Virus record (IMG/VR): IMGVR_UViG_3300020037_005233
Location: 32,001-96,000 of that record
DNA length: 64,000 bases
DNA from: a virus
Lineage: Duplodnaviria > Caudoviricetes
Strand: one strand, 5' to 3'
Numbering within the stretch: the stretch's first letter is position 1; the number at the start of each line of letters is the position of its first letter. Positions 3,303-61,503 of this stretch are shown here, one piece after another. The notes beneath the pieces are model-generated. The model had not been told where the DNA came from. It was given only the letters and a program-made list of their open reading frames with translations, and searched no databases. A program made the translations under genes and the position numbers.

Positions 3303-3651
3303 GGGACACCTCTATGTTTCTGACCAGGTTTATAAAGGCATCAAAACTTTTTATATCACACCTTATCTGCCTGTGCTCCAGCAGCCGCTGGTACCAGGGT
3401 AAGGATCTGATGTAGTCTGTTTTGATAACATTTAAGAACTCGGCTCTTAGTTTAAGCGCACTGACAGCGGTAAGCCTGACGTCGATCTCTATTTCTAGGA
3501 TTTCATCGGGCTTATGCATGTACTTGTTGCAGAAGCTCTCTGCGCACAACTTCGCTTGTTCGATGAGAACAAGATCCCTTGTACGGCAAGACACTTCTTC
3601 AATCATGGCGCATGAAATGTTATCAAGAACATCCTCTACATCATGATTCAT
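3256..3651 (-). CDS. Hypothetical protein
   Basis: ORF with GAGGAG SD. Confidence 0.6.
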   Translation of the reverse strand: MNHDVEDVLDNISCAMIEEVSCRTRDLVLIEQAKLCAESFCNKYMHKPDEILEIEIDVRLTAVSALKLRAEFLNVIKTDYIRSLPWYQRLLEHRQIRCDIKSFDAFINLVRNIEVSHERSKRSDDAYRWLT

Positions 3652-3652
3652 A

Positions 3653-3733
3653 TTAACTCCTCATACACAAATAGACATGAACAAGTGAAAAAATTCCTAC
3701 ACTTGTGCCTAAAATTATTATTTCTAAATTCAC
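3653..3733 (-). CDS. 26-aa hydrophobic micropeptide
   Basis: AGGAGG SD, GTG start, single TM-like stretch. Confidence 0.45.
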   Translation of the reverse strand: MNLEIIILGTSVGIFSLVHVYLCMRS

Positions 3734-3750
3734 AACAACCTCCTATAAAA

Positions 3751-3776
3751 GGGGGAGAGCCCGAAGGCCCTCCCCC
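3751..3776 (-). terminator. Rho-independent terminator
   Basis: GC stem with TTCG loop followed by TTTT on the minus strand. Confidence 0.7.
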
Positions 3777-3795
3777 AAGTTAACTAACTAGAGTA

Positions 3796-4188
3796 TTAAG
3801 CGGCTTTCTTAGCATGGGATTTACCCTTGCTAAGTATTTCACTTTTACTCGCCTTACTTGCTATAGCAGCGGTAGCAGCAAACACAATAACAGTGACACC
3901 TGCTTGGAGGAACCTGTCCACCCAAGTAGATACTTTATTGTTCTTAGGCTTAGCTGCTTCAGCTAGCTTTTCTTCTAGAAACGAATAATCAACCTGATTA
4001 AGAGTTCGTTCGATAATGATTTTTCTATCGCTATCGTTGAGTTCTAGGGAGTTTTTTTTGATGTATGATTCTAGCTCATCCGCAGCTTTCTGACGCATAA
4101 TTTCAATGCTTTTGACATCGATCTTAGAGTCAGCTGGTTTAGAATCAACTGCTTCAGACTTCACTTCTTTTACTTGTTCATTACTCAT
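3796..4188 (-). CDS. Hypothetical protein with C-terminal TM helix, downstream of the hammerhead
   Basis: AAGGA SD; hydrophobic segment GVTVIVFAATAAIAS. Confidence 0.7.
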   Translation of the reverse strand: MSNEQVKEVKSEAVDSKPADSKIDVKSIEIMRQKAADELESYIKKNSLELNDSDRKIIIERTLNQVDYSFLEEKLAEAAKPKNNKVSTWVDRFLQAGVTVIVFAATAAIASKASKSEILSKGKSHAKKAA

Positions 4189-4209
4189 ATTGTTTCCTTT
4201 GTTCGTTGT

Positions 4210-4274
4210 TATCCCATTTGCTCATCAGTGCAGGATAGGGGAATACCTGCAGACCCTAACAGGGTTTCGCATAT
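4210..4274 (-). ncRNA. Type II hammerhead ribozyme
   Basis: Minus strand: AUAUGC-GAAA-CCCU guu AGGG-UC/UGCAGG-loop-CCUGCA-CUGAUGA-GCAAAU; complete core and three stems. Confidence 0.9.
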
Positions 4275-41350: not shown

Positions 41351-41425
41351 TGGCTGGCGATCCAGGGATCGAACCTGGGACACCTCGGTTAACAGCCGAG
41401 TGCTATACCTCTTAGCTAATCGCCA
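41351..41425 (-). tRNA. tRNA-Asn (GTT) with encoded CCA
   Basis: TGGCGAT/ATCGCCA acceptor, CTCGG-CTGTTAA-CCGAG anticodon arm, CCAGG-TTCGATC-CCTGG T arm. Confidence 0.95.
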
Positions 41426-49422: not shown

Positions 49423-52400
49423 CTCTGTCTAGCCTCTAGTGAAATCAGCTCTAACTTTAACCGTGCAATTGTAAACTCACGCCCCGCCCAAGCAACGGAC
49501 TTATCAATGCCGTATTTTAATACATCGGCAGAGTGCTCCTCATGCAACATCTTCTCCCCCTCTGCACGGAAATCTACCATATCTTGAACACTTACAAACG
49601 GACTCTGGCTATTCATGGACTATCTCCTTCGTTATTGACGGGGCCGTCGAAAATGGTGTGTGGTATCTCCGTGATTTCCTCGTTGATCGGATACTCAACC
49701 AGCTGCCCAAAATAAAGCATTGTCGGGCAACGCTTCTTAAACTCTTCATCGGAGATAGGAAGCAACGCCGCTCTAGCCTTTGCTGCACTAAAAGGGTGCA
49801 CCGATATTTCCTTCAATGCTTCCTCGTACCTCGTCACTTTTTCTTCCAGCTCAGCTATCTTAGAACGCAATTCTTCCCTTGATAGTTCGTTAGTGGCTAC
49901 AGTACCGCCACTCTCTTCGATCATGGCTGTGATTGCTCTACCCAAGAACTCTAGTCTGCCTCTATAGATCATCTCATCAGGTGATATATTGCCAAACATT
50001 GGGTTCTTGGTGTGGAACCATACATGTGTTTTCCACTCATCCCATTTCATATGCTTCATCACCGCTATGAAAAGCGGGTTATATCCTGGTTCCATCTTGT
50101 GCTCCTTTTATTGCCTAAATACTTCTTAAAACACTTTTTGCAGGTAACGCGATTAAAATAGGGCTCCCAGCAACGAGGCGACCTGCTGGTAATTAAACTC
50201 ATGGATTTAAGGGGCCATCACCTTGAAATAAATTTCAATCCACCGAATCGAGTACCCAACACGAACAGTCACAGACATGCCTCATACTCATCACCAGATG
50301 CTTTGTGCATACGCATAAGATCGTTAAAGGTCATCTTGTACCTCGTTAACTTCGTCTCGCCTGTTGATCCAACCGTATAAGAGTTTCCTATAATGTTTTA
50401 CCATTACCCCAATACACTGTTTACAAGTTACATCTGAGCTCAAGACTGAAACGGACTCAGTATCTTCTCTTGAGCACTCAGCCACAAGCTGGCCGAGCCA
50501 CGCGAAATGTACCTTTGTCCCCTCGTCTTCACGCTTTTTATCCTGGTCAGCAATTAGCCTCTTTTCATCACATGAACAGTCACAGGTAGTGCAATAGTAT
50601 ACGTCGCAGTTAGCACAGTATTTAACATGGCCGCATTCAAATTTGCTCATCCTTCATCTCCTTCACTTTGATGTCATCTTGCTCCATATCCTTCACTTTG
50701 GTTGATGCAACGACCTTCCTAAGCTCAATAAGCTCGCAGAGGTATTCAACCACTTTCTCGCTCACACTGGCGCTATAATGACGATCTCCTCCAACATGCT
50801 CCCAGTTCATTCGCATGAAGTCTTCAATCATAGACTCAATATTATCTAACGCATTAAGGTGTTTCATCTTTCATCTCCTTCACTTCGTCGCGCTGTTTAA
50901 TCATGGCGTCTAGTACCATCTGTTGTGTGCATATGACCTTGTTTAGGCAATTAATACAGGTCACATGAATGAGATAGCCTGTACATCTTGTATTGTACTC
51001 CCGTTTTTTACCGCAAAAAAGTAAGCGAAGATTATTTACGTAATGCACTTTCATTCAGTCTCCTTCACTTCGTCGCGGCGTTTGATCCATAGTGACGTGT
51101 AGTAAATTAGTGAGTTTATTTTTTTGGTTATGCAATCAACACATGTTACTTCATCTGCGAATCTCGAAGTTTTTTCATTACTACTGTACAATCCGTCATC
51201 ACAAAATTGTACACATGAGTTTCTATCAACTAAATGCACCTTCATTCAAACACCTGCTTTCCGTCTTCAAATACCATGTCTGGAATGTCATTTGCACGCA
51301 CGCAAAGTAAACCCGCAGATACCGTAAAACCCTCTTTCACCCAAATAATGCATCCATCGGCGGTAGCCCACGCCTGAAGCACGACGCGCTTCTTGGGCAG
51401 GACTGGGGACCAGTCATCAGTATCTAATCTAGCCGAAAAAGAACTTCCATTGGACTTCATAAGAAGTGCTAAATTAGTTCCAACAGCGTCAACTGTGTAC
51501 ATCTCTTCGGTGCTATGGGTTACTATCCCGCCGACTCCTACTTTTTCGATTGCTTCTTTAAGTGTTGCCATTTAATTCCTACTCCTATTTACTTCTTTTA
51601 GGCGGTCTTTAAGCCATTTCACTTGTTGTTGAAGGTCTAAAATGACCATATTCGATAACTCTTCTTTATGTTTTTCGACCAGTTCAGTTCTATATCTTTG
51701 AGCCCACGTGTGAGGACCGTCTAACTTTAAAATGCCGTCCTTTATTTCATCCATGAGTTTATCCTGGAGTTTGTTTTTATAATTAATCTCAGCATCAAAC
51801 GTGGCAAAAGGAATTACATTAGCATAGAAGTTTGAAATAGTTTGCCCAGCCGTGCTCCTCATTTGTTCCTTAAAATTATCCAGGGCGTCTTGCGTTTTTT
51901 GCGCAAAAATCTTTTCATCCATTTCGTTGTCTAGCTCAAAATTCTTCATCACTCCGCCTTGTCATATTTACGTTTAAATTCTTCATCACTCATCACGCTG
52001 AACGTGTCGCCGTCTTTGATGATCCAGTCGCCAACAAAAGCCCACTGAAGATACCCCCGCATTGGTGGTGGTTGGTATGAAATGCCGTTAAGATAACACC
52101 TTCTGTGTCTACTAAAAATAGTGCCCCACTTTTCGCACATATGTTCATATGATTTAAGACCATCAAGCCGCACCGCCTCAACCTCAGCTGGCTTGCTTCG
52201 GTATTTCATGGTGATACCTTCAGCTTCTTAATCTCATCATGAAGTCTGTAGTGCTCGTGTGTCTGCAACCTATGGTTGCTTGCCAAGACTTCGGCGTAAC
52301 ACTTTTTAAGGTGCTCGACTTCTCGTTCTAGCCTGCCAACGTAGTCTGACTCTAAACCTTCAAAGTGCATTGTCCCATCATAAATAGGGTGCTTCATCGA

Positions 52401-53144
52401 CGTGCTCTGGGTAAAACCATACTTTTCATAAAATGCTTTTGAATCTTCACTTTGTTTCATGATTGCTCCTTTAAAAACTCAATCAGTGCGGCAACATCTG
52501 CATTTGATAGTGTGCAGTAGTTCCAAACCCATTTTTCCATTTTCATCACTTCGTGTTCATGGCCTAAGTCACACCGCTCAGTTTTCTCGGTCTTCTGGGG
52601 TATGAACCCCGCCCACCTTACTTCTACACCGCCATCACGCTTGTGTTTCAGGTTAAGACATTCCCCCGAGTCTTCGTTACATTCTCCGTAAATTGCTAGC
52701 TTTGTTTTAGTGCGCCTCACCTGGGTGAGGCCATCTTCCATCTCTGATTTTAATCTGTTTAAGTCTGGCATTGTGTACTCCTATCTGTGCTAACGTAGTG
52801 GTTCTCCGCGCTTAAACTCGCCTGGATAAAAGCCTCCGCTTAGAAGGCCGTAATCACTTTTGTTCATAGCTTCTTCACAGTCTAAATGCATTCTGGCAGC
52901 AAAAAATTCTCCAAAGTTAGAATAAGCCCTGGACAGGTGCTTCTCTTTCACTAGGATTTTGTCTCCGCACCACTCACACTCGTATTGTTTTCGACCGATA
53001 ACGTGTTTTGTTTTTATTTCTTGATAAGCCATAAATCTCCCTACTACCTTGACCCGCTGGTCAACACCCCTAAAATTAAAAACAGGACAAGAACCTTATA
53101 TATATCCACACATGTCTGTGTATCCATAAACACTCCTTAAAATC

Positions 53145-53394
53145 GGCTGGTGGCACGCGGCTAACGAGTCATCCGACTAATTCCGTTCACTCCACCAGCC
53201 TCTTAATGCGCGTGACCTCTTTTAGCCTGAGTCGAGTCATTCTCTGGACCAGACGTGAGCGTTACCTAATGACATGGCTTTGGTCTGTGTGCTCAACACT
53301 TTACGCGCAAACTTAAAACTACTGAGGGCGTGGCGTCCAATTGGAGCGACCTCTCGACCTGCCAAGCGCCTCAGTCATGACCGTGCTTAGGTCA
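53145..53394 (-). ncRNA. Cluster of structured non-coding RNA domains (copy A)
   Basis: Stems GGCTGGTGG/CCACCAGCC, TGCGCGT/ACGCGCA, ACTGAGG/CCTCAGT, each enclosing inner helices. Confidence 0.6.
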
Positions 53395-53397
53395 AAG

Positions 53398-53544
53398 TTA
53401 TTCTTCGTATTCTTCCATTATTTCTTGCGCTGATTCAATCCCAGCCCAATTATCAACTCCTGCGGCCTCTAGTGCTTGCAGCCAAGCGGAGTCTTTCTTT
53501 AGCTGTTCATATTGTTTCTTTGAGATAGTAACTTGTTCTTCCAT
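53398..53544 (-). CDS. 48-aa protein like the phage family usually annotated as RecBCD inhibitor
   Basis: VTISKKQYEQLKKDSAWLQALEAAGVDNW; not in ORF track. Confidence 0.55.
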   Translation of the reverse strand: MEEQVTISKKQYEQLKKDSAWLQALEAAGVDNWAGIESAQEIMEEYEE

Positions 53545-54018
53545 CCATCCCCCAACTGCCCATATAGAGCGTGTTTAAAATTTGTCACCACTCATGACCG
53601 CAGTCTGGACATCTATGCCCAATAATGCGGTCTTCTCTAATACTTGAAAGTGAAATGCGGCGGCTCCATCTGTTGAGTATTCCGTGCTTAGTCCACCCAG
53701 CATAGTCCTTTGCCCAGCTGATGGCATCCTCTGCTGACTTTCCTTGCTTTATGAAAGTGTCAATAACAAGGTCACCGTCAAAGTTAGCGTTACAGGAAGG
53801 GCAGTATCCGTTTATGTTCTTATTCATGGCGTGGAAATTCCTGTTGAAAATATCTGCCAAGCTCAAAGCCCAGTACAATCCAGCCACAAATGACAACGAT
53901 AAAATCAAATGCGCCAATCATGGGGTTGGCTCTCTCCGCCCAAGTCAGTGCTGTGCATATTGTTGTCCCAACGAGCAGTACAATGTTATAAACCTTTTCC
54001 ATGTATCTCCTTAAAATC

Positions 54019-54187
54019 GGCGGCGAGCGGCGATTACGCTCTTTACTCTCTCTCGTTTGAGTACCGCCTTATTTGCGCGTCTCGGGTCGGTTTTTTATTG
54101 CCGACGGCTCTTGAGTTCCGATTACTCAAATTGGTTAGCACGTTTCCTAACCTAGAACCATTTGTGCACTTTCGTACTGACGCGCAA
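54019..54187 (-). ncRNA. Structured non-coding RNA, two domains (copy B)
   Basis: TTGCGCGTC/GACGCGCAA closing five helices; GGCGG/CCGCC three-way junction. Confidence 0.7.
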
Positions 54188-57100
54188 TCTTTGTCACTGA
54201 CAGTAGTTCTTTTTCAAGTCCTTCATCGCGTCCAAGACTTTCGTGATGTCAGATAGTGTTACACCGCTTGAGTCTTTGATAAGCACGGTGATTGCTCTAC
54301 GGTTTAAACCAGACTTTAAAAGTTTTTCTGCCGAATCTGAAATGCTGACAATAGATTTTGCCAAAACCTTCGCCGCTACTTCTTCACCCTCAACCTGCTC
54401 AACTTCAATCTTCTTTTTTCTCATCTTCTCTCCTCCAGCCCCGGCGGCTTTTGCTGTCGCACACTTCCTGCATACAGGATCGTTTCCACGTTTTGCTTCA
54501 ATCATTTTTATTTCCTCTGCGGTAGGTGGGTCGCACGCAATGAATCGCTTGCCACAAAAAGACTCGTAATAATCCCCATCCCTCAGTTTCGATAAGTCTT
54601 CTACCATCATAATATGTGTAACGTGTCTCGGCATATTTCTTCCTGTACTACAAACCGCCCTGCTTAGGTGTCAGCGACGATTTCATCTCCCACAAATTTC
54701 AGTGTTTGTGTTATCACGGGCTTATTTATGATCGCCCACACACGGTTAGCTACCCTAGCAGCTACAAGCCACTTTGTTGTGCCATCTTCATACCCTGATA
54801 TTGCGCCCTCTACCACGATCATGCACTGATCAATTGCATTATCCACGTCCGATTTAACCTTCTTTAAAAAGGCTTTCTTCTCTTCTTCAGTCAATATCCT
54901 GCCTGTACCAGTTTTTTCTTTGGATTCATCGCGGTCTTGTTTTAGCTTCATCAGTGTTTTAAACATGTACTCACTATCCTGCGATAGGCGGTGCAAGCAG
55001 TTCTTACAGTTTGCATCTAAGTCGTGGCCTACTACAGTAGTAGTGAGACCTTTCTTGTGTCCACAGAATGTCCTGCCGTTAGTGCCCTCAATATGTGTTG
55101 TCATTATTTCTCCCCCGCACATTCATCGTGTACAGCCCTTGCCCGAGCCTTCTCCGTAGTTATTAGGATTGCCTCTTTGGTTTTCTCTAGCGCTACTTGT
55201 GGAGATGCTGACCAGTCTGTGTACACAGTTACTTTCGCCTTTTCTGCATCATACAAAGAATCCATAAGCTTGCTACTCAGCCTATGTATTCTCTTGTAAT
55301 GGTGCTTTACTTGTTTTGGTGTTGGCATTTTTGCTCCCGATCTTCTCTAAAAAGTTTGCAATCTTAGATAGTCTAAGCGCGTATTTGTGGATACGTTTAG
55401 CTAGTGCACGCGGATTCTCGTCTTCGTCTACAACGCACCCGCAAAAATCTAACGCGTACTCAATTTCAATATCTCCTGGTTCCGCAAAGTGCTCTGCGTA
55501 AACATCTCTTTTTAGCGTGATACCGTAAATTTCTTTGTTATAGTGCATATAAAGTCCCCTAATTAAGTTACCATTAGCGTTATTTTCACACCTCACCAGC
55601 CGCTTTCGTTTCTAGCACCAATAGCTTAGTGTGCTTGTGATATCCTGTGGCCAGATCACCCCTGTCATGTTGCGGGTAACTCACCTCTTGGTAAACAAGA
55701 TGTGGGCCGTTGTGAGCAAGCCAAATCTTTTCACCATCTAAAATCTTCTTCATCTCCGCGTTCTCTTCACTCAAATCAGCGTTGTGATTAGCGAGCTTGC
55801 GCCCTAGCTCTTTTGACATGTTTAGCTGGCTCTCCAACTCTGCAATCCTTTGTGCTGCTGTGTATGCGGCCATATTTATATGATAAAGCTTATCTACAAT
55901 GTCAGCTGGCTCGTCCTTGATTTTCTTCTTTAATAGACGGCCTCCAATTTCATGAGAAGAACAAATCAAATACTTTTCAACAAATCCATCTACCTTTATT
56001 TTACACTTATCGCGGATTACATCTTCATTAGAAGTTGCCAGCCCAATCGCATCAATGGTGTCTCGGATTCTTCTTTTCAGAAAAGGAACAAAAACCCAAA
56101 CCCTATCCCCAACATTCCAATTAGTTTCCATTTTTCCACCTTGGCTTGAACAGAATGCAAGTAATTACATACGGCGGGTTTAATCTAGATATGATGCTTT
56201 TAAACTCACAACCATCTTGATGTGTCTGAGAATTAAACGCGCCAACACTAACTGACATGAAAGACCAAGAAAATAACGTAACCATTATTAATTCTCTATT
56301 ATAACTGTTCATTACACTGAATACTCTTTGAGAGCATAAGTCTTTAAGTGTCTTCATAAATGCCTTCATTCTAATAACTCCTTCAACGCCTCGCAAAACG
56401 CATAAGAATTTGATCCAGTGCAATTATAATACATCCGATTCAAACTCTGCTTCTTAGTCTGAACAACAGCAGATACGCTCGCAACTATTCCAATAACCGC
56501 AAATAGAAAAAGGACAAGCATTAAAAAGACCTGTAAAAAATCTAAGAACTGATTTGTTTTAACCTTCTTTTTCTTTTTCACTTACTCTCCTAACGATCCA
56601 ACTTACACTTACGCTCCAACTCGTTCATCTTAAGCCCAAGATCCAAAAGATCCGCTCTGATCGCATCGTTCTCTCTACCACACCTATCTTTGCTAAGCTG
56701 GTCCGGGTCATACCAAAATCTATTGCGAGACACCTCACACCCCAGGAGGTATCCGGGGTTTGTGACCTGTACCCAATTCTTGTAGACGCACCCGCCACTA
56801 ACCACGGTGTTTGTTATGCCGAACATAAAACCCGCTAGCTGAATCATGGACACCACCACAAATACGTTCTCTTTCATGTCTCTACCCCTTCTAAGCGTTC
56901 TTCGTACATTTGTTCAGTGAGTTGTGTCCAATGAGATATAACCACAGGTTTTGACCCAGTATGCTCCGCTATAAACCGTGATACCTTCTTAATAGGGAAC
57001 CAGCCCTCTGTTGTTTTTATGTATATAGACCCAAAAATGCCGCCGTCTAGCACATAAAACACATACCAATAATGGTTCATCTTATTTCCCAAGCTCGTAT

Positions 57101-60749: not shown

Positions 60750-61503
60750 CGGAAATTTCCTTCCTTCTTTTCTTAGCGGCACATCCAAGATGGTATGCAA
60801 TACCAGTACTCGCACCATGTTCAACCCTCTTCCCGCAATACCTGCAGGGCTTTCTACACCTAACACACAGACCACTAGCAAAAGAGCCTACGCTACTACA
60901 GCCATCGCATTTGCTAATGGATTTGTAAGGCCTGTTGCCACTGCCTTTAACTACTACAGCCACCGGCTTATACCCGTAAAGTTCTTCTTCAAAACTACCC
61001 ACAGCAAGTTTTTTATTTCGCCACGTCATAGCAACGCAACATAACATATTTCAATAGCTAAAGTGAAGCGGCCGCTATCATAGCGACTGCCCCACAAACC
61101 ACCTTTTATTGTTGCTTTTAACGATCACCCATCTGTAGAATTGCCGCTCCAGTTGTTTTTAATTTCAGCCATTGTCTTTGCAAACATATCCTCTGCCACC
61201 GAAAACGCCTTTCTAACCCTGGCTACTTGATCAGGGGCGGTGACACGAAACCACACCGTAGTACCTTTACCGGAGCACAGCTCACAATCAGCCTCACCAA
61301 TAGATCCTATACCAACACAACTACTGCACACTTTTTCCACTAGGTTTCTCCTTTATTCCAAACCAGCCCCTTGCCCATTTATCTGCTTCTTCACGTGTCT
61401 TGTGCTTTCCGCTAAGAATTAGCCCTCCAGGATAACAAACAATAAAGAATGTCTCACCTGCCTTCGTATACTCATCTATTCGATAATGTGCTTTGCTCAT
61501 GGG

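Follow-up and report, generated by a model that had tools for sequence, protein, structure and literature searches.

Two intercistronic gaps of common design

The IMG/VR virus record IMGVR_UViG_3300020037_005233 (Duplodnaviria; Caudoviricetes) is a 113,446-bp viral genome of 46% GC, scored by CheckV as 73% complete (here G000), and the window analyzed in this work is the stretch of 64,000 nucleotides (nt) formed by its bases 32,001-96,000. Two noncoding gaps on the minus strand of the window, copy A and copy B, are composed of short modules closed by their own stems (D1 and D2, preceded in copy A by a hairpin module, hp0), and each ends in a leader with a Shine-Dalgarno (SD) block directly before a small open reading frame (ORF). 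Both gaps lie among consecutive small minus-strand genes, a layout typical of early host-takeover regions, and a gene for a RecBCD inhibitor is positioned between them. The window also encodes a tail-sheath-like protein, a DNA polymerase, a helicase and an exonuclease, and the source phage is therefore probably a myovirus. The features are listed below in window coordinates, following the minus strand from 5′ to 3′ within each copy.

54073-54187, minus: D1 of copy B, arms UUGCGCGU(C) / (G)ACGCGCAA (UUGCGCGU at 54187-54180, ACGCGCAA at 54080-54073), 99-nt four-way-junction interior opening CA-GUAC-GAAA-GUGC-ACA; RNAfold -42.6 kcal/mol
54019-54068, minus: D2 of copy B, GGCGGU...GCCGCC with two inner hairpins; z = -2.2 to -2.5
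54000-54018, minus: leader of copy B, GAUUUUAAGGAG (54018-54007), then AUAC and the ATG (54002)
53398-53544, minus: gene for a T7 gp5.9-family RecBCD inhibitor, 48 aa, between the copies; Pfam PF25708 E = 5e-20, PHROG 6234
53367-53393, minus: 5′ boundary block, hairpin GACC-UAAGCAC-GGUC and AUGACUGAGGCG, a few nt past the gp5.9 stop codon
53321-53375, minus: hp0 hairpin module, closing stem ACUGAGGCG / CGCCCUCAGU, 36-nt interior; RNAfold -25.2 kcal/mol
53311-53320, minus: AU-rich linker AGUUUUAAGU from hp0 to D1
53207-53310, minus: D1 of copy A, arms UUGCGCGU (53310-53303) / ACGCGCA (53213-53207), 89-nt interior opening AA-AGUGUUGAGCAC-ACA; weak fold
53145-53200, minus: D2 of copy A, irregular hairpin of ~21 bp, closing stem GGCUGGUGG / CCACCAGCC; -24.8 kcal/mol
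53125-53144, minus: leader of copy A, GAUUUUAAGGAG with the SD (53144-53133), a spacer and the ATG (53127)

The sequence-only reading of this DNA had described a minus-strand architecture shared by the two gaps, and every feature that it named was found where it had been placed, including the leader GAUUUUAAGGAG, identical at 53133 and 54007, which is present in both gaps and nowhere else in the genome. Both D1 interiors start with a 4-bp hairpin and then ACA, D1 is joined to D2 by UUAAGA in copy A and by AUAA in copy B, and the leader opens onto a hydrophobic ORF, of 27 codons in copy A (53127-53044) and of 60 aa in copy B (54002-53820). The string CTCCTTAAAATCGGC has exactly two occurrences in the 113,446-bp genome, one per gap; TTGCGCGT and GATTTTAAGGAG are found nowhere else, a 12-mer and a 15-mer are likewise confined to the two gaps, and UUGCGCGU...ACGCGCA together with GAUUUUAAGGAG is restricted to them genome-wide, in like order and at like spacing. 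Because these strings occur in the genome only at these sites, the shared arrangement indicates that the two gaps are homologous and not alike by chance.

An array with tRNA-Tyr in a second phage lineage

A related array was reached through a 280-nt minor contig of a wastewater run (X1; Logan), which contains D2 and the 3′ arm of copy B, 166 nt that could not be aligned, and the 18 nt immediately upstream of the 5′ arm of copy A, with breakpoints at 54078 and 53313. The loose end of this contig recovered from viral contigs the record IMGVR_UViG_3300020049_006105 (G002; 47.5 kb, 54% complete), where hp0, tRNA-Tyr, D1, D2, D1′, D2′, an SD and a helix-turn-helix (HTH) gene follow one another on the coding strand:

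Elements 1-2, coding strand: stop codon of an Acb2/Tad1-like gene, then CCUAAGCACGGUCAUG
Elements 3-4, coding strand: hp0, ACUGAGGCG, 81-nt interior, UGCCCUCAGU; then AGUUUUAAAAU
Elements 5-6, coding strand: tRNA-Tyr (GUA) with encoded CCA; then UUUUAAG(U/A)
Elements 7-8, coding strand: D1_C, UUGCGCGU, 58-nt interior, ACAGCGCAA; then AUAA
Elements 9-10, coding strand: D2, 98% identical to D2 of copy B; then GAUUUUAAGU
Elements 11-12, coding strand: D1′, a bare hairpin UUGCGCA-CUCGGAA-UGCGUAA; then UAAAGA
Elements 13-14, coding strand: D2′, GGCGGU, ~70-nt interior, GCCGCC; then GAUUUAAAGGAG and the AUG of an XRE/HTH gene

The interior of D1_C forms two perfect hairpins, and D1′ is an "empty" hairpin of 7 bp with a 7-nt loop. 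Comparison with G002 indicates that the terminator-like hairpin at 53375-53321 upstream of copy A, not recognized as a module in the earlier reading, is the hp0 module, in which arms shared with G002 enclose another interior. The boundary-block string CCUAAGCACGGUCAUGACUGAGGCG also has an exact match in the G002 array, behind the Acb2/Tad1-like gene. A linker of the type (G/A/C)(A/G)UUUUAAG(U/A) joins hp0 to the tRNA, the tRNA to D1 and D2 to D1′ in G002; the tRNA-Tyr is inserted at the position of the hp0-D1 linker, with UUUUAA flanking it on both sides, and the 8-nt linker UUUUAAGU stands between its CCA and the stem of D1, which is of the 7-9-bp type. The other end of the G002 contig carries a second, truncated array copy behind an ORF of Gly-Tyr repeats.

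The tRNA-Tyr array precedes an identical HTH gene in at least 24 contigs (JGI, NCBI, ENA and Logan) and in two upstream contexts, and only a few single-nucleotide polymorphisms (SNPs) separate these arrays: G/A in the tRNA D-stem, U33C in the tRNA, and U/A in the linker. The U33C change is present in L025 and L031 and the D-stem G to A change in L026-L029 and L032, both at normally conserved tRNA positions; the variant tRNA-Tyr goes uncalled by default ARAGORN and is called by Rfam (33 bits) and by ARAGORN at 90% thresholds. Diverged homologues of the HTH protein (55-63% identity) have no array upstream. The small genes flanking the arrays of G002 and G000 on both sides show patchy nucleotide identity of 78-93%, which points to syntenic parts of one hyperplastic early region. 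In several contigs (L015 at ~244-460, minus; L025, L030, L031 and L033), the ORF directly upstream of one array copy consists almost wholly of Gly-Tyr-(Asp/Asn) repeats (...GYGDGYGDGY*). Upstream of the hp0-type array (L026 1800-2012, L027 1693-2007, L028 787-999) lies a gene with a weak Pfam match to Acb2_Tad1_hairpin, a family of anti-CBASS and anti-Thoeris sponges. Together with gp5.9, this Acb2/Tad1-like gene suggests that the arrays sit in counter-defense gene neighborhoods.

DNA identical to the locus is present in wastewater, freshwater and marine-plankton metagenomes of several studies, and the sequencing runs listed for it include no RNA source. Among 50,697 deposited phages there is no near relative of the genome. 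Searches of these records with megablast and blastn matched only the gp5.9 gene, in MW202601/4, and the 380-nt gap that follows gp5.9 in MW202601 shows neither structure (z = -0.3) nor any relationship to the arrays. Single-protein searches with the 146-aa or 80-aa neighbor proteins found no related loci, and a search with the helicase found one distant high-GC relative, G001, which does not have the locus. Strict architecture patterns run against public collections gave chance matches only: one in viral contigs (L008) lies within ORFs, three in metagenomes (L012-L014) are high-GC and unrelated with two of them within coding sequence, and one in a Rhizobiales genome (L045) is unrelated and without a tRNA. 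Viral contigs scanned for CAGTAGTTTTAAGTTTGCGCG and ACGCGCA-N-GCCGATTTTAAGGAG gave no match.

Interiors are replaced within constant frames

Comparison of these versions shows arms and linkers that are identical or almost identical. The interiors of D1 (A, B and C), of D2 (A, B and D2′) and of the two hp0 modules are no more similar than shuffled sequences (z = -1.3 to +0.3), the sole pair to reach z = 1.9 being those of D2_A and D2_B. D2 of copy B differs from D2 of G002 at 1 position in 52-69 nt (98% identity), and the adjoining D1 interiors share nothing. Because near-identical D2 modules adjoin unrelated D1 interiors, the pattern indicates that interiors are replaced as units with joints at the arms or linkers; drift by point mutation could not yield it. 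The frame can also be "empty", as D1′ shows. Recombination of this kind, which the pattern requires, was missed in the first reading, and it makes an explanation at the level of DNA a serious rival to any based on RNA.

The breakpoints between natural variants agree with interior replacement, lying at the feet of modules in the X1 contig (54078 and 53313) and in L010 (53371). L010, JGI contig 3300020036 Ga0206648_1009586, was found among contigs that encode the identical 60-aa protein; it is 100% identical to the locus down to 53371, the 5′ foot of hp0, and then continues into an unrelated cassette. At 3600-4260, past its gp5.9 gene and the GACC...GGUC hairpin, L010 carries ORFs of 59 aa and 70 aa with an SD of their own, and it lacks hp0, D1 and D2, that is, the whole of copy A; its boundary block is shared as far as ...ACUGA. 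A contig from run X2, a marine plankton metagenome, shows 23 differences in 140 nt at 53682-53821, in a Zn-ribbon ORF downstream of the 60-aa gene, and this divergence is a further mosaic spot of the same region.

None of the modules was assigned to a known family. Rfam 15 matched only the tRNA-Asn in the window at gathering score, only two chance-level models in 52900-54400 at E ≤ 10 (E > 5, 15-16 bits), and only the tRNA-Tyr in the G002 array at E ≤ 10. ARAGORN called no tRNA in gap A or gap B at default or down to 70% thresholds, and in the arrays it yielded only the tRNA-Tyr at default, 90%, 80% and 70% thresholds with introns allowed. A look by eye for anticodon-loop mimicry, CRISPR repeats or ToxI-like repeats gave no consistent feature. 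The sequence-only reading had recognized no tRNA, riboswitch or ribozyme and had proposed an undescribed family with conserved closing stems and unrelated interiors; the searches bear out the former, and D1_C, D1′, D2′ and the second hp0 of the G002 lineage extend the latter.

Folding and compensatory change

The significance of each predicted fold was expressed as a z score of its RNAfold energy against shuffled sequences. D1 of copy B is predicted to fold through the helices GUAC-GAAA-GUGC, GGUUAG/CUAACC, UGAGU/ACUCA and GUCGG/CCGAC with z = -5.4 to -5.7, none of 300 shuffles being equally stable, and all of the copy B helices listed in the earlier reading are in the minimum-energy structure. 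D2 of copy A (z = -3.4 to -3.8) has helices of 9+2+6+4 bp; D1, hp0 (z = -2.1 to -2.5) and D2 of copy B are branched, with closing stems of 6-9 bp. The claim that the interiors differ and are well paired stands for D1 of copy B and D2 of copy A and fails on pairing for D1 of copy A (z = -0.8 to -1.0). Copy B is predicted to fold with its SD block unpaired; for copy A, the minimum-energy and centroid folds place the AAGG of the SD in weak long-range pairing with a CUUU located at the 5′ terminus of the gap.

The closing stems contain two compensatory events. In D1 the seventh pair is G-C in both window copies and A-U in D1′, and an additional U-A pair is inserted on both strands of the stem when D2 of copy A is compared with that of copy B. 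D1′ also contains one G-U pair. Covariation, which the reading had proposed as a check, is thus present to the extent of one compensatory pair and one compensatory inserted pair.

Transcription context, tRNAs and the terminal leader

No sigma70-type promoter was called on the sense strand of gap A, gap B or the G002 array, no intrinsic terminator was called on the sense strand of either array, and no antisense promoter was found in the arrays. The downstream tracts of hp0 (AGUUUUAAGUUU) and D2 (GAUUUUAAG) did not score as terminators in the sense-strand scan. An intrinsic terminator of the form GGGGGAGGGCC-UUCG-GGCUCUCCCCC-UUUUAU, which contrasts with hp0 and D2, lies at ~3730-3770 (minus) in the gap 3652-3795. 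A recurrent intergenic motif, a T-run with GGGTATAAG (for example UUUUUCGGGUAUAAGCUUAAUAG; core GGGUAUAAG), stands before genes in several gaps and is probably the phage's own type of promoter; the GGGUAUAAG motif is absent from gaps A and B and from the G002 array. With neither promoter nor terminator called in them, the arrays would therefore be transcribed as part of the early message. The motif sites and the sole tRNA of the record are:

5110, 4386 and 698 of the window, minus: T-run + GGGTATAAG motif; also at 60975 and 7376, and at genome position 15514, beyond the window
41351-41425, minus: tRNA-Asn(GTT) with encoded CCA, ~12 kb from the gaps

The tRNA-Asn begins 1 nt past the stop codon upstream of it (CAAAGAUUGA|tRNA), and CUUUAGGAGAUACAUUAUG stands directly behind it. 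AGGAGAUACAU occurs genome-wide only after copy B and directly behind this tRNA, and CAAAGAUUG, which precedes copy B, is common to the tRNA-Asn flank; the CAAAGAUUG flank is weak alone, 2 of its 4 minus-strand sites lying within genes. Judging by these shared flank strings, a tRNA and a D1-D2 unit seem to take equivalent places. Both phage tRNAs (Asn GUU and Tyr GUA) have GUN anticodons.

The modules, the tRNA and the terminal SD are all on the coding strand, between genes of the same strand, and every array ends in D2-GAUUU(U/A)AAGGAG-N4-5-AUG before one of three unrelated genes, for the 27-aa ORF, the 60-aa ORF and the HTH protein. The earlier statement that the element lies upstream of small membrane-protein genes therefore describes both copies in the window and is not general, the G002 cassettes leading into the XRE/HTH gene. 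The linker after the tRNA, ACCA-UUUUAAG, is the string that also stands behind hp0 and D2. A tRNA-Tyr chained into the array must be excised, so the shared linker should be a processing site at least once, which makes processing at the linkers plausible. RNase E prefers to cleave at RN|WUU, which the UUUUAAG linkers fit.

No reverse transcriptase (PF00078), tyrosine recombinase or integrase (PF00589) or Y1 transposase (PF01797) was detected in the incomplete G000 (73%) and G002 (54%) records; readings as a retron msr-msd, a diversity-generating retroelement, an integron or an IS200/IS605-type element would each call for one of these enzymes.

Proposed model for the arrays

We tentatively favor a model in which both gaps are recombining intercistronic RNA cassettes that would be transcribed together with the early genes and the tRNA, cut at AU-rich linkers, and terminated by a portable leader. 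The array would be a chain of self-closing modules (hp0, D1 and D2, with the tRNA-Tyr in G002) separated by single-stranded (G/A)UUUUAAG linkers. Transcription would enter by read-through from the upstream genes, the array having no promoter or terminator of its own. Host endonucleases are then predicted to cut the linkers, RNase E acting there and RNase P at the tRNA, and the stem-closed modules would remain as protective structures at 3′ or 5′ ends or as free stable fragments. D2 together with GAUUU(U/A)AAGGAG may serve as a portable leader that presents an open SD to any gene that follows. The arms and linkers could double as short homologies through which interiors, tRNA genes and neighboring cassettes are exchanged between co-infecting phages. 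Processing, for which the sequence-only reading had proposed the closing stems as signals, is plausible at the shared linkers given the tRNA-Tyr on the same strand; folding does not clearly favor the sense strand.

Several observations weigh against this model. The two strands fold nearly alike, with summed energies of -253 kcal/mol (sense) and -241 kcal/mol (antisense), for copy A the antisense fold is the better one, and D1 of that copy shows no significant structure. The compensatory events number two in total, the remaining stem positions being invariant and so uninformative, and the sequence of the arms is conserved, though closure alone would not require that. Closing stems of 7-9 bp are too short for classical RNase III sites; RN|WUU is a low-information preference, and UUUUAAG is common on the coding strand, for which reason it was dropped as a stand-alone signal. 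The absence of copy A from L010 implies that the array is dispensable, and the sole run labeled "RNA-Seq cDNA" that contains the sequence (X1), which was read as contigs, is probably DNA.

Alternative explanations

A possible but unlikely alternative is that the modules are cargo-carrying small RNAs, in which the constant frame of stems and linkers frees discrete RNAs whose variable interiors are functional, as sponges, base-pairing small RNAs (sRNAs) or decoys for defense nucleases. Interiors that are unrelated and yet individually well folded (the four-way junction of D1_B, z = -5.4; the two perfect hairpins of D1_C) are consistent with such cargo, as are the counter-defense neighbors, the gp5.9 RecBCD inhibitor and the Acb2/Tad1-like gene upstream of the G002 array. 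The linked tRNA-Tyr is of the type shown to rescue phages from tRNA-Tyr-cleaving defenses (PMC11555353, PMC13096335), functional sRNAs from phage intergenic regions are on record (bioRxiv 10.1101/2024.10.31.621285), and T4 produces stable non-tRNA RNAs beside a tRNA. However, the "empty" D1′ and the poorly folded D1_A argue that cargo is not always present or structured, the interiors match no Rfam family and no phage record, and copy A is missing in L010. A more specific version, which we regard as doubtful, would have a constant frame (stem and RNase E-type linker, with tRNA co-processing) release interchangeable cargo RNAs, for example decoys or sponges against defense or RNA-decay factors, that are traded within anti-defense islands. 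The decoy or antitoxin-mimic payload put forward in the sequence-only reading is pure speculation.

The explanation at the level of DNA holds that the arms and linkers are microhomologies for exchange, as joints similar to promoter-early stem-loops (PeSLs) or as selfish nested palindromes, and that the hairpins have no function as RNA; although a serious rival, it too appears unlikely. The near-equal folding of the two strands fits this view, as do helices that are almost purely Watson-Crick (G-U pairs make up 21 of 242 pairs on the sense and 17 of 238 on the antisense strand) and an arm sequence kept beyond the needs of pairing. Arms and linkers are exactly where interiors are replaced and where mosaic breakpoints lie, the similarity of G000 and G002 around the arrays is only patchy, and PeSL cassettes are known to mediate insertions and deletions (indels) between small ORFs in T4-type phages (PMC2839356, PMC4122927). 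Against it, the material swapped within D1, D2 and hp0 is 7-99 nt of noncoding sequence and not genes, and homologous exchange would have only very short arms, of 7-9 bp, to act on. In every array the modules are strictly co-oriented with genes, tRNA and terminal SD, which points instead to a role as RNA, and folding clearly favors the sense strand for D2′ and the tRNA. The sigma70 promoter of PeSLs is absent, and so are a recombinase, a reverse transcriptase and a Y1 transposase from both records, which are incomplete.

It is improbable that D1, D2 and hp0 are decayed tRNA genes, remnants of a former phage tRNA array whose acceptor-like closing stems survive. The 7-bp stem of D1, followed by 2 nt and a 4-bp hairpin, has the spacing of an acceptor and D-arm, D1_B forms a four-way junction, variants of the genuine tRNA-Tyr chained in the array carry damaging-looking SNPs (D-stem G to A, U33C), and the tRNA-Asn slot shares flank strings with copy B. 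With hits accepted up to E = 10 the Rfam tRNA model nevertheless matches no module, ARAGORN relaxed to 70% thresholds and permitted introns calls only the tRNA-Tyr, and the T-loop and D-loop consensus is absent, unlike in T4 rnaC with its canonical T-arm; moreover, decay would not preserve identical arms around unrelated interiors.

A cis-regulatory leader (riboswitch, thermometer or type I toxin mRNA leader) controlling translation of small hydrophobic proteins would suit the short hydrophobic ORFs after both window copies, and type I toxin mRNAs typically have long structured 5′ leaders, but this reading is largely refuted by the same cassettes preceding an HTH regulator gene in G002 and is made most improbable by the open SD in the predicted fold of copy B, by interiors too unconserved for a ligand pocket or conserved switch, by the failure to find the antisense promoter expected of a type I toxin-antitoxin system, and by the lack of an Rfam riboswitch match.

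Other features of the region

Upstream of copy B are two adjacent genes of 146 aa each (54194-54634 and 54664-55104, minus) without a Pfam or PHROG family, one of them with a weak PHROG match to "DNA binding protein". At 50324-51245 (minus) there are four tandem small Cys-rich ORFs of 108, 76, 66 and 64 aa that have similar C-terminal tails (...RRDEVKE / KEMKDE...) and look like a locally amplified family of paralogues.

Significance

Phage early regions concentrate host-takeover and anti-defense functions, and attention there goes almost entirely to small proteins. The arrays are a noncoding family that is common at near-identity to two otherwise mosaic phage lineages, chained to a tRNA-Tyr, situated beside a RecBCD inhibitor and an Acb2/Tad1-like gene, and evolving by swaps of whole interiors within fixed stems. 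If they are processing and leader cassettes, uncultured phages would use them to punctuate and stabilize early polycistronic RNA and to move genes that come equipped with a translation start; should the interiors be functional cargo, the arrays would represent a modular small-RNA system in phages. On either reading, the conserved arms and linkers provide a handle, as a pattern or a covariance model, for locating further members.

Comparison with known systems

The PeSLs of T4-type phages (Arbiol et al. 2010, PMC2839356; Comeau et al. 2014, PMC4122927) resemble the arrays in being small repeated noncoding stem-loop cassettes at ORF boundaries in hyperplastic early regions, where close relatives differ by indels and replacements. 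The location of the arrays is hyperplastic in the same sense: L010 replaces copy A and the genes downstream, synteny between G000 and G002 is patchy, and the G002 array occurs in two contexts. PeSLs are defined, however, by a sigma70-like early promoter (TTGACA-N17-TATAAT or a variant) with one simple stem-loop, whereas the modules lack such a promoter, comprise several domains with swapped interiors, are tied to a tRNA and finish with a conserved SD leader.

The T4 RNAs rnaC and rnaD (species 1 and 2; NC_000866) are likewise structured non-tRNA RNAs, of ~120-140 nt, encoded directly downstream of a tRNA on the same strand with their ends paired into a closing stem. In contrast to the modules, rnaC keeps a canonical T-arm (GGUUCGAAUCC) adjoining its closing stem, and neither RNA is a repeated frame with swapped interiors or leads into an SD.

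The RNase III hairpins R0.3-R1.3 of T7 are repeated, intercistronic elements of the early polycistronic RNA, just upstream of ribosome-binding sites, and their cleavage leaves protective termini. Their position matches that of the modules, and D2 of copy A, an irregular hairpin of ~21 bp, is of the right size. The T7 sites are coaxial duplexes of ~20 bp, many of them containing an internal loop, unlike the 7-9-bp stems and branched interiors of D1 and hp0, and the AU linkers point instead to RNase E.

Integron attC sites, as the modules do, combine conserved short inverted ends with highly variable folding interiors and lie between small gene cassettes. They differ in having RYYYAAC/GTTRRRY cores and the integrase IntI, compared with arms of UUGCGCGU/ACGCGCAA and no integrase here, and in forming one imperfect palindrome rather than branched multi-hairpins that lie upstream of genes and end in an SD. 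The arrays are thus an uncatalogued family of elements, kin to the known intercistronic or tRNA-cluster RNA elements of phages.

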